Part shown: positions 5,557-10,331 of the stretch, in pieces | Position numbering within the stretch: the stretch's first letter is position 1 | How the letters are laid out: each line of letters begins with the position of its first letter | Made by a program: the position numbers and the translations under genes | The notes under the pieces: generated by a model | Databases searched by the model: none | What the model saw: only the letters and a program-made list of their open reading frames with translations | What the model was told of the DNA's origin: nothing | From: Parcubacteria group bacterium | Lineage (GTDB): Bacteria; Patescibacteriota; Minisyncoccia; Moranbacterales; UBA11712 | Length of the DNA stretch: 15,434 bases | Direction of reading: 5' to 3' | Assembly (NCBI GenBank): GCA_041659065.1 | Contig: JBAZYY010000019.1 | Location: 1-15,434 of the forward strand

Positions 5557-6912
5557 ATGGGGCGAATCTTTGGGATATTTAGGATGCGATTAAAAATAAA
5601 TTTAAAATTCGACCAAACGCTTTTCAAAATTAGCTTGATTATCTTTCTTATCATTGTGAGTTTTATCACTAGTAGCAAAGCTTCTAAGGCTGATTACATG
5701 ACAGAAGCGCAGTGCACGGCGGCCGGCGGAACCTGCAATAAGATTTCCAGTAATTGTAATCCTGACCAAGACAGCAAGGGGCTATGCCAGGGAGGTCCAT
5801 TAACACAGGGAGCATGTTGCGCGCCGAAAACAGCGGCTACGACTAAACAAGCATCGGCTGCAGGAGAAAATTGTAAAAAAATTAATGGGTCTTGTTTTCC
5901 ATTGCAGACGGAGTCAGGTTCGACGTGTGGGGATGATGATTTTAAAGGAACTATGGATTGCCCTTTCCAGGAGGGTTGCTGTGTCCCCAAAGCAGTTGCC
6001 ACGACTAATAATACTTCCCAGCCTGCTACTTCTCCTAGTACTCCTGCTAGTTCAGAAAATACCGGAGGTCTTGTTCCATGTAAAAATAATTGCACGCTTT
6101 GTCATCTGATTGTTGGATTCCATAATATTTTCACGTTTCTTCTCGGGCTTCTAATCACCGCGACCTTGCTCGCGATCACTGGTGCGGGAGTCTTTTATAT
6201 GGTCTCCACGGGAAATAAAGGGATGATGGATACGGCTAAACAGGCGTTGACCTATGCTCTCACAGCTTTTGCTCTCGGATTGGGTTCTTGGCTCGTGGTC
6301 ACGATGATTCTCACGGCATTTGGATTTAATAACGCCGGGAGTTGGTGGACATTCACATGTGATGCGACGCAAAGCCAGGGGGCTTCGAGTGTGGCGAATA
6401 ATGTTGGAACACCCGGAGTTTCCAAAAGCGCTGGTATTGGGAACGGAACATGCGGCGGCGTGGGAGGACAAACCAGCTTGTGTAAATATCAAACAAAAGA
6501 GCTGGAAAATCTTCTTAGTTGTATAAAAGGCAAGGTTGCTATGGGCGATTCCGCAAATTCAAAAATGGCGGGATATTTTATTAAACCAGCATATGCTGCA
6601 AGTACAATCAGCGCGTCCTATTTAAATGCTGAAAGCAATTTACAGGATTGCGCTGGTAACGGGTATTCAAAAGACAAATGCATTCATATGAGGAATTCAT
6701 GCCACTGGGGAGGGACTAATTGCGCTGGCCAAATTAATGCTGCTGATTTGACAGGGAGTGATCTTAACGCAATTAGGCAAGCAGCTACTGCCTGTGGAGG
6801 TTTTTCAATATATAAAGGCACAAATTATCGTGTCGATGGAACAACTTCTACGGCTAGCGATCATGGAAGTCATGTGCATGTGAGTCCGATGAATAGTTGT
6901 GGATGCCAATAA
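5557..6912 (+). CDS. Secreted T4SS-pilin-like (TrbC/VirB2-like) membrane protein. It has two N-terminal 6-Cys repeat modules and a ~195-aa Cys-rich C-terminal domain.
   Basis: 451 aa. Signal peptide is roughly MRLKINLKFDQTLFKISLIIFLIIVSFITSSKASKA; the alternative start ATG 5584 drops the first nine residues. Two repeats of C-x6-C-x6/10-C-x9/10-C-x5/9-CC lie at about 5713-5982, followed by a T/S/P linker. The two-TM pilin-like hairpin (IFTFLLGLLITATLLAITGAGVFYMVSTGNKGMMDTAKQALTYALTAFALGLGSWLVVTMIL) lies at about 6067-6327. The 11-Cys C-terminal domain lies at 6328-6909. Confidence 0.7.
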   Translation: MGRIFGIFRMRLKINLKFDQTLFKISLIIFLIIVSFITSSKASKADYMTEAQCTAAGGTCNKISSNCNPDQDSKGLCQGGPLTQGACCAPKTAATTKQASAAGENCKKINGSCFPLQTESGSTCGDDDFKGTMDCPFQEGCCVPKAVATTNNTSQPATSPSTPASSENTGGLVPCKNNCTLCHLIVGFHNIFTFLLGLLITATLLAITGAGVFYMVSTGNKGMMDTAKQALTYALTAFALGLGSWLVVTMILTAFGFNNAGSWWTFTCDATQSQGASSVANNVGTPGVSKSAGIGNGTCGGVGGQTSLCKYQTKELENLLSCIKGKVAMGDSANSKMAGYFIKPAYAASTISASYLNAESNLQDCAGNGYSKDKCIHMRNSCHWGGTNCAGQINAADLTGSDLNAIRQAATACGGFSIYKGTNYRVDGTTSTASDHGSHVHVSPMNSCGCQ

Positions 6913-6926
6913 CAAATTTTAAAAAT

Positions 6927-7712
6927 ATGAAACGATCATACTTAATTATCTCTATTACAATCATTATCGCGATTGTGATAACTGCAGTATTATTGCTGAC
7001 AAAATATTTTGGGTCAAGAAATAAAACCGCTGGCGATCAAGCTCCTGCGAATAAAAGCCAGGAAATGATATCGTTGCCGGTTACTTCTTATCAAGGCCAG
7101 GATTTGCAAGTTGAGGACAGGAATAATCAAGTCCAAATAAGAAACTCATTTGAAGCTTATATAAAGCAAAATTCTGATAATTCCCCACTATATAAGGAGA
7201 ACGGAATTTCCCAAGCTTTTCCAATTGACGACAAAAATGGAGAGATGATCCAGCTAGATTCATTTTTAGAGTCAGTGGGCGCAAAAGTTAATCCTAAAAT
7301 AAAAAGCCTTGTTGGATCCAGCTACTACGGATTCTTCTACTGTCCAAAAGGAACAGATAACAAAGATTTTGGCATGACTTTAGACTTGGCAAGTGATTCG
7401 CAGAATCTAGGGAGCGTGAATTCTCAAGCTATAAACGCCATGCTCCAGTGGGAGCCTTTTATGCTTAAAGATTTGCATAACATTCTTTTCCCGGGAATAA
7501 ATTTTAATGATACGCAAATTAGTCAGCCGCTAGTTTTCAAAGATGGTAAATTTCGGTATGCCGAAGTGAACTTGCCTGGTGGTGAAAAAAGTTCGATTAA
7601 CTATGCTGTGGATATTTATCCGCCGGATCATCCTTCTGCGGTAAATAAAGTTTTTATAGCCACTTCCCAAGAATGTTTAGAAAAATCTCTTGGCTATTTA
7701 TTCGACTTTTAA
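6927..7712 (+). CDS. Hypothetical protein with an N-terminal signal-anchor TM, embedded in the pilin-like array
   Basis: ORF 6897-7712. The first 30 nt overlap the upstream gene's stop (6910-6912), so ATG 6927 (MKRSYLIISITIIIAIVITAVLLLTKYF) is the likely start. The ~240-aa extracytoplasmic domain has no family I recognise. Confidence 0.55.
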   Translation: MKRSYLIISITIIIAIVITAVLLLTKYFGSRNKTAGDQAPANKSQEMISLPVTSYQGQDLQVEDRNNQVQIRNSFEAYIKQNSDNSPLYKENGISQAFPIDDKNGEMIQLDSFLESVGAKVNPKIKSLVGSSYYGFFYCPKGTDNKDFGMTLDLASDSQNLGSVNSQAINAMLQWEPFMLKDLHNILFPGINFNDTQISQPLVFKDGKFRYAEVNLPGGEKSSINYAVDIYPPDHPSAVNKVFIATSQECLEKSLGYLFDF

Positions 7713-7744
7713 TCTTATATTAATTAATCAAAGCCAAAACAAAA

Positions 7745-9049: not shown

Positions 9050-9072
9050 TTCAGCTAAGGAATAGCTAATCA

Positions 9073-9546
9073 TTGTTTTCGATAAAAATGAAAAAAACAA
9101 ACGGAAAAATATTTTCAAAATTACTTAATCTTCCCCGATCCATCTCCCCCTCCCCCTCCCTTTCCCTTTCTCTATCTCTATCTCTATCTCTATATCTATA
9201 TCTCTCTCTATCCATATCTCTTTTCCTAGCATTTATATTTGCAGGAAATGCGAAAGCCCAATGGGTGCCGGCGAAGCACCTGTTGACTAATCTCCCCTAT
9301 AGCCCGATATATCTGATCATATACAACGTGATGAAGTGGGGCTTGGGAATCTTCAGTTTCATTGCTGTTATCAGCTTTGGCATTAGCGGGGTGATGTATC
9401 TGGTTGCGGCTGGGGACGAAAAAAGACAGGAAGGCGCCAAACGGGCTATGTACTATTCCATCATGGGGGTCATTGTGGGCTTGAGCGGGTTGGTTATTAT
9501 CTATGCCGCGATGAAGATGCTCGGAAACCAGACAACCCAATTCTAG
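9073..9546 (+). CDS. T4SS-pilin-like (TrbC/VirB2-like) protein with an unusually long, repeat-encoded signal peptide
   Basis: 157 aa; an alternative start is ATG 9088 (MKKTNGKIF...). The signal peptide ends ...FLAFIFAGNAKA|QWVPA, the same A|Q cleavage context as the 8587 gene. The core GIFSFIAVISFGISGVMYLVAAGDEKRQEGAKRAMYYSIMGVIVGLSGLVIIYAA is ~80% identical to the 8587 core. Confidence 0.75.
   Translation: MFSIKMKKTNGKIFSKLLNLPRSISPSPSLSLSLSLSLSLYLYLSLSISLFLAFIFAGNAKAQWVPAKHLLTNLPYSPIYLIIYNVMKWGLGIFSFIAVISFGISGVMYLVAAGDEKRQEGAKRAMYYSIMGVIVGLSGLVIIYAAMKMLGNQTTQF
9141..9220 (+). repeat. CT-rich microsatellite inside the 5' coding region of the 9073 gene. It combines ctcccc repeats, two C5 homopolymers, four perfect TCTCTA units and degenerate TATCTA/CT units.
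   Basis: The sequence is catctccccctccccctccctttccctttc(tctcta)x4 tatctatatctctctctatccatatctc. The TCTCTA units occupy 9169-9192. The region translates to SPSPSLSLSLSLSLSLYLYLSLSISL inside the signal peptide. Confidence 0.85.
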
Positions 9547-9581
9547 GTGGTATGAATAAATTTCAATAATCTAAATAAAAA

Positions 9582-10331
9582 ATGAAAAAAAAAGAAAAAA
9601 AATATATTATTGGATTCTCCGTCTTTTTATTGTTTTGCATGTTCGCGATTCAAGCTTTTGCCGATGAATACGGATCGGAATCCAGAAAAATATTGGACAA
9701 ACCGATACTTATTGCCGCCGTGGGAGACGATTGCAACACGTCTGCTGATTGTTCTTCGGGAATGTCATGCGTGCCTTGTGAGAGCGTCGGGGCAAAATGT
9801 CTGGGAAATGTTTGTTGGAATGGCAGTAATACGTCTGCAGCCGCTAGCTGTTCTGAAACTTGTTACCCCATAGCCTGCCCTGAGGGCACAAGCCAAATAT
9901 CAGGTACTTGTTCTGACCAGTATAAATGTTGCGGTGGATCTGCAACAAATTATGAAAATAGCGGTTCAGTTCCCGCGGGGACTTGGGGAACTAATGTTAA
10001 TACTCAGACGGGTGGTGTAAGTAGCGTTTCGGGCTACAGCGGTTCAGCTAGCGGAGTAATCCTTCCAACTTGGAGCGGTCTTCCCACTGGAACGGTTGAA
10101 GGGGTCATCTTTACTTTCTTAATGTGGCTCCTCAGTATTTTTGGCTTTATTGCCATTATCAGTTTTATCGTGAGCGGCGTGCAATATTTTCTGGCTTTTG
10201 GCGAAGAAAAAAATATGGAAAGAGCCAAGCGGAATATGGAGTATTCGATTATTGGGGTGGTCGTCGGCCTTATCGGAGTTATTATAATTTTCGCCGTGGA
10301 TTTCTTGTTGAGAGGCGTTCCGTTGTTCTAG
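9582..10331 (+). CDS. Secreted T4SS-pilin-like protein with an N-terminal 12-Cys domain ending in CCGG
   Basis: 249 aa. Signal peptide is MKKKEKKYIIGFSVFLLFCMFAIQAFA. The Cys-rich domain lies at about 9732-9935 (DDCNTSADCSSGMSCVPCESVGAKCLGNVCWNGS...CSDQYKCCGG). A G/S/T linker follows. The pilin module lies at about 10092-10328 (VIFTFLMWLLSIFGFIAIISFIVSGVQYFLAFGEEKNMERAKRNMEYSIIGVVVGLIGVIIIFAV). Confidence 0.75.
   Translation: MKKKEKKYIIGFSVFLLFCMFAIQAFADEYGSESRKILDKPILIAAVGDDCNTSADCSSGMSCVPCESVGAKCLGNVCWNGSNTSAAASCSETCYPIACPEGTSQISGTCSDQYKCCGGSATNYENSGSVPAGTWGTNVNTQTGGVSSVSGYSGSASGVILPTWSGLPTGTVEGVIFTFLMWLLSIFGFIAIISFIVSGVQYFLAFGEEKNMERAKRNMEYSIIGVVVGLIGVIIIFAVDFLLRGVPLF

Follow-up and report, generated by a model that had tools for sequence, protein, structure and literature searches.

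Arrays of VirB2-like pilin genes are a described feature of the Patescibacteria: arrays of 2-11 genes occur in 383 assemblies, and VirB2-like pilins are found in 1,948 VirB4-positive assemblies, near virB4 in 1,135 of them (Quinonero-Coronel et al. 2025, PMC12102498). In Southlakia epibionticum ML1 the pilin array is essential and forms part of a type IV secretion system (T4SS) cluster (Wang et al. 2023, PMC10633639). According to reviews the function of Patescibacteria pilin arrays is unknown and no pilus has been observed. Here we describe an array of five such genes (A to E) on contig JBAZYY010000019.1 of a Parcubacteria group metagenome-assembled genome (MAG; WC858_ locus tags in NCBI). 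The window is the entire 15,434-bp metagenome contig, which is longer than the other contigs bearing identical genes, and statements about the window cover these 15.4 kb. Like the published arrays, this one is chromosomal, belongs to the PF18895/PF04956 family and comes from a monoderm host of the Candidate Phyla Radiation; as in about 40% of the assemblies with both pilin and VirB4, its pilin genes have no virB4 nearby (PMC12102498). An array has been defined as at least two divergent VirB2-like genes in tandem or with one non-pilin gene between them, and the window holds five, with a single non-pilin gene (X) among them.

VirB2 arrays in Patescibacteria are thus already known, and C is annotated as a pilin in GenBank. 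What we did not find in the literature searched is a fixed heteromeric cassette in the order SBP-A-X-B-C-D-E, a tandem-fused (double-module) pilin such as B, any fusion of VirB2 to a hydrolase in Patescibacteria, let alone a VirB2 hairpin-peptidase fusion as probable in A, with swapping between LAS and NlpC/P60 domains, a single member with signals of high expression, or a co-conserved solute-binding protein. With moderate confidence, we read the window as a chromosomal cassette of the VirB2/TrbC superfamily in which C is the major pilin, A, B, D and E are its partners, and assembly is carried out by a T4SS encoded at a distance. The features of the cassette are as follows.

4033-5511, + strand: solute-binding lipoprotein (SBP; SBP_bac_1/8, lipobox LSGC, Pfam E 4e-26)
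5557-6912, + strand: gene A, 451 amino acids (aa); an alternative ATG at 5584 is the start called by JGI
About 6436-6909, + strand: C-terminal ectodomain of A, probable LAS (Hedgehog/DD-peptidase fold) zinc peptidase
6927-7712, + strand: gene X, non-pilin, 261 aa, between A and B
7745-8533, + strand: gene B, 262 aa; two tandem VirB2-like hairpins after a signal peptide and one 6-Cys module
8587-8955, + strand: gene C, 122 aa, mature about 97 aa; hairpin at nt 8704-8910; PF18895 at 41.5 bits
8980-9019, + strand: intrinsic-terminator-like hairpin, 12-bp stem and U7, directly after C
9021-9049, + strand: promoter-like site TTTTCA-17-TATAAT ahead of D (10/12 in a consensus scan; pattern match only)
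9088-9546, + strand: gene D, 152 aa from ATG; the open reading frame (ORF) extends to a TTG at 9073 (157 aa)
9582-10331, + strand: gene E, 249 aa; signal peptide and cysteine-rich ectodomain at the N-terminus, hairpin (nt 10092-10289) at the C-terminus

The five + strand ORFs of 122-451 aa listed in the first-pass annotation of this DNA are all present at the starts given there. Its description of them as consecutive does not strictly hold, as X separates A and B. D likely starts at ATG 9088 instead of TTG 9073, and A may start at ATG 5584.

Family membership and the shared hairpin

The five proteins had been assigned to the VirB2/TrbC/T4SS_pilin family, and profile searches uphold the assignment. 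PF18895 (T4SS_pilin, gathering cutoff 26.6 bits) was passed by B (66.7 bits in two stretches, E 1.9e-18), C (E 1.4e-10) and D (28.7 bits, E 1.4e-6), while gene E scored 26.5 bits (E 6.6e-6), 0.1 bit under the cutoff. B also exceeded the 27.9-bit cutoff of PF04956 (TrbC) with 39.6 bits (E 6.3e-10). Taken alone, A scored 13 bits against PF18895, below the cutoff; it was joined to the family because its own family profile aligned to the profile of the other modules with 98.2% probability (hhalign, E 4.7e-14, 72 columns), because its homologues often bear PF18895 and because 25 of the 35 A-type relatives match that model. A search with C found 329 homologues, and PF18895 is present in each of the 120 listed. 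The name that NCBI gives to C itself is 'MAG: pilin [Parcubacteria group bacterium]'; the earlier family assignment is therefore correct. The Mbov_0395 proteins of Mycoplasma integrative and conjugative elements (NCBIfam NF045849) are likewise small, pilin-like, with two transmembrane (TM) segments, and belong to a wall-less or monoderm conjugation system. B to E matched that family at 22-32 bits (E 7e-8 to 7e-5), and since all these scores lie below its curated cutoff of 40 bits we do not count them as members. Against the PDB, the best match of the pilin profile was 8dft, a conjugative-type 'Pilin protein', at a non-significant E of 0.44.

Each of the five proteins has a basic N-terminus, a hydrophobic leader and an AxA-type site at the leader end, the cleavage-like sites from A to E being SKA/DY, SLA/YT, TMA/QL, AKA/QW and AFA/DE (slash, cleavage position). 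In Kyte-Doolittle windows every module comprises two hydrophobic segments of about 19 residues with a charged stretch of about 14 residues between them. Because B holds two modules (aa 105-170 and 186-257; nt 8057-8254 and 8300-8515), there are six hairpins in five genes, and all six align without gaps. Identity to the module of A is 15-26%, and C and D are the closest pair, with about 70% across the hairpin. The signal peptide and two-TM topology proposed earlier is borne out by this heuristic prediction and by the AxA-type sites, so that the leader, two TM helices and short loop of PF18895/PF04956 proteins are all predicted. The four loop peptides quoted earlier all occur in the proteins. 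The loop is not, as had been stated, net basic: with 2-4 basic and 1-3 acidic residues it has a net charge of 0 to +1 and is charged but nearly neutral. An orientation with both termini outside fits because, in the A family, conserved cysteines flank the outer ends of the hairpin on both sides.

The same long cleaved leader, two hydrophobic helices and short charged loop are found in VirB2 (Agrobacterium T-pilin), TrbC (RP4) and TraA (F). Their mature size of about 70-100 aa fits C and D, while A, B (with its two modules) and E fall outside it. Unlike these pilins of diderm T4SSs, the array belongs to a monoderm host, its paralogues include a tandem fusion and ectodomains of 100-250 aa, and no VirB machinery is adjacent. 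The possibility that the proteins are type IV pilus pilins was rejected: there is no class III signal peptide (G/(F or M)-T-L-x-E), each module has two TM segments, and no type IV pilin family was matched in Pfam or NCBIfam. Nor is there support for assembly by a sortase or a type IV pilus system, as once raised for this array.

A small 6-cysteine module ending in CC (C-x6-C-x4-10-C-x9-10-C-x5-9-CC), with no match in Pfam, was also seen in the window, in A (5713-5982, two copies), B (7835-7930, one copy) and gene E (9732-9932, one copy plus a variant). It is common among relatives of the A family.

Conservation of the cassette in Moranbacteria

A degenerate-pattern scan, taking one genome per species, yielded 51 related loci encoding A-type relatives, which were read to 10 kb on either side. 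Nearly all come from Candidatus Moranbacteria/Moraniibacteriota or from unclassified Parcubacteria/Patescibacteria MAGs. When a hidden Markov model of the module was run on all ORFs of these loci, the same order was recovered in about 18 species-level genomes: a one-module A-type gene, a two-module gene, then 2-3 short or N-terminally extended single-module genes. In every related cassette the B position is occupied by a double-module gene. On L004, the 140-kb contig with the best synteny, the order is MBL, GyrA, SBP, A', X', double pilin(s), C', D', E', tRNA-Leu, RluA. Identity between the window and L004 is 64% for C, 57-69% for D, 59% for B and 61% for SBP, as against 71% and 69% for the housekeeping proteins MBL and RluA; A, X and E are at 44%, 46% and 43%. 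The hairpin cores of C and D are conserved on a par with the housekeeping proteins. Given the order shared by about 18 species and the L004 identities near housekeeping level, the paralogues are old, positionally fixed and non-redundant, and a recent paralogous expansion is not supported.

Between genomes, the appended ectodomain is the part that varies. The L004 counterpart of gene E has a repetitive N-terminus unrelated to that in the window, and the L004 genes at the B position either lack an extra domain or carry Big_2 and a HEMGH metalloprotease-like tail. The latter gene (L004 12172-13980) encodes a double-module pilin fused to a Big_2-like domain and a C-terminal HEMGH zinc-metalloprotease motif, a further enzyme cargo on the hairpin.

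The unit probably extends to the SBP gene. It encodes an orphan, carbohydrate-type solute-binding lipoprotein and immediately precedes the A-type gene in 24 related loci; 11 of these differ in every other flank, a small methyltransferase with IF2, UvrD or RNase J replacing GyrA. No ABC permease or ATPase gene lies beside SBP in the window, nor was one seen among the upstream genes sampled in those 24 loci. X, directly after A in 13 of the approximately 18 species-level cassettes, is a non-pilin bitopic membrane protein without the hairpin module and with a Mog1/PsbP/DcrB/LpqN-like ectodomain. It was tried as a VirB8/PrgL protein (NTF2-like ectodomain) and rejected, as a fold search gave Mog1/PsbP/DcrB-like folds and no VirB8.

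Several further observations were made on these loci. Pilins with the CTLCH motif also occur in a second locus type (L013, L017, L020, L021, L023, L026, L027, L030, L031, L033 and L045-L048), where the CTLCH pilin comes third, after a surface protein (about 900-990 aa) and then a protein with the pilin module (about 300-385 aa); the surface protein has a signal peptide, a large acidic ectodomain and a C-terminal anchor, with no Pfam match. GyrA on L004 (5967-8397) is split into five ORFs, probably through frameshift errors of long-read assembly and not as a pseudogene. Moranbacteria-like cassettes in L006, L008, L028, L034 and others come from MAGs labelled 'uncultured Bdellovibrionales', 'Candidatus Bathyarchaeia' or 'Omnitrophota', most likely through mislabelling or bin contamination. 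In the window, two convergent genes (10430-12555, - strand) stand between gene E and tRNA-Leu (12890-12971); their products are a Pro/Ala-rich membrane protein of 339 aa and an SPFH/Band-7 protein of 368 aa. Their stretch has 52-56% GC as against about 43% elsewhere, they have counterparts in none of the 51 related loci, and on L004 tRNA-Leu and RluA follow directly after E' without them. It looks like a lineage-specific insertion beside a tRNA gene.

A candidate major subunit and its proposed partners

Expression signals single out C. It is preceded by a GGAGGTG Shine-Dalgarno sequence with a duplex energy of -13.6 kcal/mol, where the other array genes have -5.1 kcal/mol or weaker and most genes of the window have no Shine-Dalgarno at all. 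The pattern recurs in 17 of 18 related cassettes, in which the first short pilin after the double-module gene is at -11.9 to -16.8 kcal/mol and its neighbours are weak. The hairpin at 8980-9019 has a folding energy of -16.3 kcal/mol (z -5.1), a stability that 0 of 200 shuffled sequences reached; an automatic terminator scan missed it because its loop is 9 nt, and direct folding confirmed it. Since C has the only strong ribosome-binding site, a feature kept in the related cassettes, and a terminator in the window, we infer that it is an abundant structural pilin and the candidate major subunit. The same signals suggest that A-X-B-C and D-E may be separate transcription units. Among 110 C-type homologues, the AxA/Q site is present in 109 and a final Phe in 96 (mostly xQF), and the median mature length is 93 aa. 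The conservation of both mature termini could relate to pyroglutamate formation, to head-to-tail cyclisation or to recognition by an assembly machine. Head-to-tail cyclisation is reported for TrbC/VirB2.

D is a short pilin (hairpin at nt 9307-9504) with a long leader, and its cleavage-like site is also present in the L004 orthologue. An imperfect (TCTCTA)n repeat of 8.8 copies at 9169-9221 encodes, in frame, the SLSLSLYLYL of this leader; the NCBI gene call for D (93 aa) omits the repeat-encoded part. Repeat length is unchanged in three independent metagenome contigs that are 99.9-100% identical. Phase variation through the repeat was considered and rejected, as the 6-nt unit keeps the frame and the three independent samples are identical in this respect.

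In A, the signal peptide is followed by two 6-Cys modules, a CTLCH motif, the hairpin (nt 6103-6330), a WWxFTCD motif, a linker and the C-terminal domain. The family as a whole has the same plan, with a signal peptide, 0-2 6-Cys modules, GGLVPC..CTLCH, TM1, a YMVSTGNKG loop, TM2, WWxFTCD, a linker and a variable C-terminal domain. In the window protein this last domain is probably a LAS-fold zinc peptidase. It fits the Hedgehog/DD-peptidase fold, whose relatives include phage L-Ala-D-Glu peptidases, LdcB, VanY, VanX and the Streptomyces Zn DD-peptidase. H383, D397, H439 and H441 are invariant in 10 sequences. The LAS zinc-ligand motif, H-x(3-6)-D with a downstream HxH, expects 3-6 residues between His and Asp, whereas in A the spacing is 13 residues with a Cys-flanked insert. 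Foldseek against the PDB ranked Hedgehog domains at the top, not significantly, and the domain had no match in Pfam or NCBIfam and, searched with the family profile, none in the PDB at E up to 10. We label it LAS-like and do not file it in M15, because of the missing Pfam and PDB sequence matches and the atypically long His-Asp spacing. It is rare, with 21 clusters among 1.84 billion representatives, and is always C-terminal in proteins of about 240-530 aa, the exceptions being a few short, probably truncated entries.

The strongest support for A as a probable cell-wall peptidase is comparative, namely the swap to NlpC/P60 in positional orthologues. In seven other cassettes the orthologues at the A position match C-terminal domains of A homologues that are mostly NlpC/P60 by Pfam. 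Of 35 A-type proteins scanned, Pfam itself called NlpC/P60 in 5; an SLT lytic transglycosylase domain occurs in one A-type protein, and others bear esterase, CBM6/35, beta-helix or M64-like domains. Known VirB1-type hydrolases (SLT in VirB1; NlpC/P60/CHAP and others in PrgK, TraG, CwlT and CD419) offer a parallel, as the A-position proteins likewise carry peptidoglycan-hydrolase-type domains and would likewise be membrane-anchored with the enzyme outside the cell. They differ in that the LAS-like domain is lineage-specific as well as rare and has no Pfam model, and in that the anchor of A is a VirB2-like hairpin, which would make A in effect a VirB2-VirB1 fusion.

Proposed assembly of the array products and competing explanations

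The first-pass annotation had stated that no VirB4, VirB6 or VirD4 gene lies in the 15 kb, and Pfam and NCBIfam searches indeed returned no VirB4, VirB6, VirD4 or other T4SS family among the window ORFs. Nearby absence is general in this lineage. Every ORF within 10 kb in the 51 loci that reaches 450 aa and contains a Walker A motif was screened, and no VirB4-like ATPase was among them; they were housekeeping proteins, namely IF2, FtsK, ComM, ClpB, PilB-type T2SSE, UvrA/B and FtsH. A 922-aa ORF with a P-loop motif beside the second pilin locus type was rejected as an ATPase, being a secreted surface protein with a C-terminal anchor. In this respect the window and the 51 Moranbacteria loci differ from Southlakia, whose array is within its T4SS cluster (PMC10633639). 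Table S1 of PMC12102498 includes six Moranbacteria genomes from our locus list and scores each of them 'Presence of VirB4: Yes'; two of the six have the full cassette.

Under the interpretation that we favour, A to E would be inserted through the Sec pathway and their leaders cut by signal peptidase, leaving both termini outward and the charged loop cytoplasmic. C would be the abundant major (shaft) subunit, and A, B, D and E would be low-abundance partners using the same hairpin for co-assembly with C or for anchoring beside it. Of these, A would carry a cell-wall peptidase, B would be a covalent pilin dimer and E would be decorated at its N-terminus, so that enzymes and binding modules would be exposed jointly by the array, on a filament or at the cell surface. 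A monoderm T4SS of the VirB4/VirB3/VirB6 type, with its genes elsewhere in the genome, would power membrane extraction and polymerisation. The peptidase of A would make an opening in the peptidoglycan of the cell itself or of the host, a task that falls to VirB1 in T4SSs. The earlier suggestion of a diversified display system over a single pilin fits, as the hairpin bears cysteine-rich modules, the LAS-like peptidase, NlpC/P60 and SLT.

Four points weigh against this interpretation. The window has no T4SS gene, and because the contig is just 15.4 kb the link to a T4SS is drawn through homology and related genomes only. In no Patescibacterium have these proteins been observed to form a filament. 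The ectodomains of 100-250 residues on A, B and E may be incompatible with VirB2-type helical packing. Lastly, the expression of C is gauged only indirectly, from its Shine-Dalgarno and terminator signals.

The main rival, which we judge unlikely though deserving of weight, is that the hairpin has been recruited simply to anchor surface proteins in the membrane or to oligomerise them, with neither pilus nor T4SS involved. It would account for the lack of VirB4 beside the arrays in all 51 related loci, for the range of cargo on A-type hairpins (NlpC/P60, SLT, esterase, CBM and beta-helix domains among others, with lengths of 0 to about 1080 residues), for large domains at both termini that look hard to pack in a filament, and for the co-conserved orphan SBP lipoprotein. 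It sits poorly with C and D, which are minimal (mature about 93-97 aa) and strictly conserved at their termini, and with the high-expression signals of C, all odd for a bare anchor; VirB4 is moreover present in the related genomes checked, and the Southlakia array is essential as well as being part of a T4SS cluster (PMC10633639).

It seems improbable that the paralogues are interchangeable major pilins serving antigenic or host-range variation, a role put forward for VirB2 paralogues in Bartonella and Anaplasma. Variation has been suggested for Patescibacteria arrays (PMC12102498), ectodomains do differ at orthologous positions between genomes, and D contains an in-frame hexanucleotide repeat. 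However, each paralogue keeps its position and architecture over about 18 species and a strong ribosome-binding site is found at one position only; this positional conservation and the single strongly translated member weaken the explanation. It also has to face C and D hairpin cores as conserved as housekeeping proteins, the constancy of the three near-identical metagenome contigs and of their repeat length, and the fact that no inverted repeats, recombinase or silent-cassette structure were seen. Very improbable is that A to E are unrelated small two-TM proteins (holin-like, immunity-like or transporter fragments) resembling pilins by hydrophobic composition only: C does give many weak sub-threshold matches to unrelated membrane families, and JGI names some homologues GlcU, YjgN or cytochrome subunits, but PF18895 and PF04956 score above their cutoffs with E down to 1e-18, Mbov_0395 matches are consistent if sub-threshold, and the best, non-significant PDB match is itself a pilin (8dft).

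Beyond the cassette with C as major pilin and a distal T4SS, a bolder and quite tentative proposal is that the products form a heteromeric T4SS-dependent surface organelle with a shaft of C, in which hairpin-fused enzymes, placed at the shaft or along it, breach the wall of the host bacterium and SBP captures the released material. The enzymes would be the LAS-like or NlpC/P60 domains on A and metalloprotease-type cargo on relatives, with the VirB2 hairpin as universal adaptor. If true, the 'missing VirB1' of most Patescibacteria T4SSs would be accounted for, and there would be a concrete mechanism by which epibionts tap their hosts.

The pilin array of Patescibacteria is essential in the one species tested, and no pilus or substrate is known. 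The locus described here adds no new kind of system. It does offer testable handles, in the form of fixed, non-redundant paralogues, one candidate for the major subunit, a putative hairpin-anchored peptidoglycan peptidase and a co-conserved SBP. The peptidase of A could be an unrecognised VirB1 equivalent or an enzyme that attacks the host wall, and together these handles narrow the choice of proteins to tag, deplete and image in a cultivable relative.

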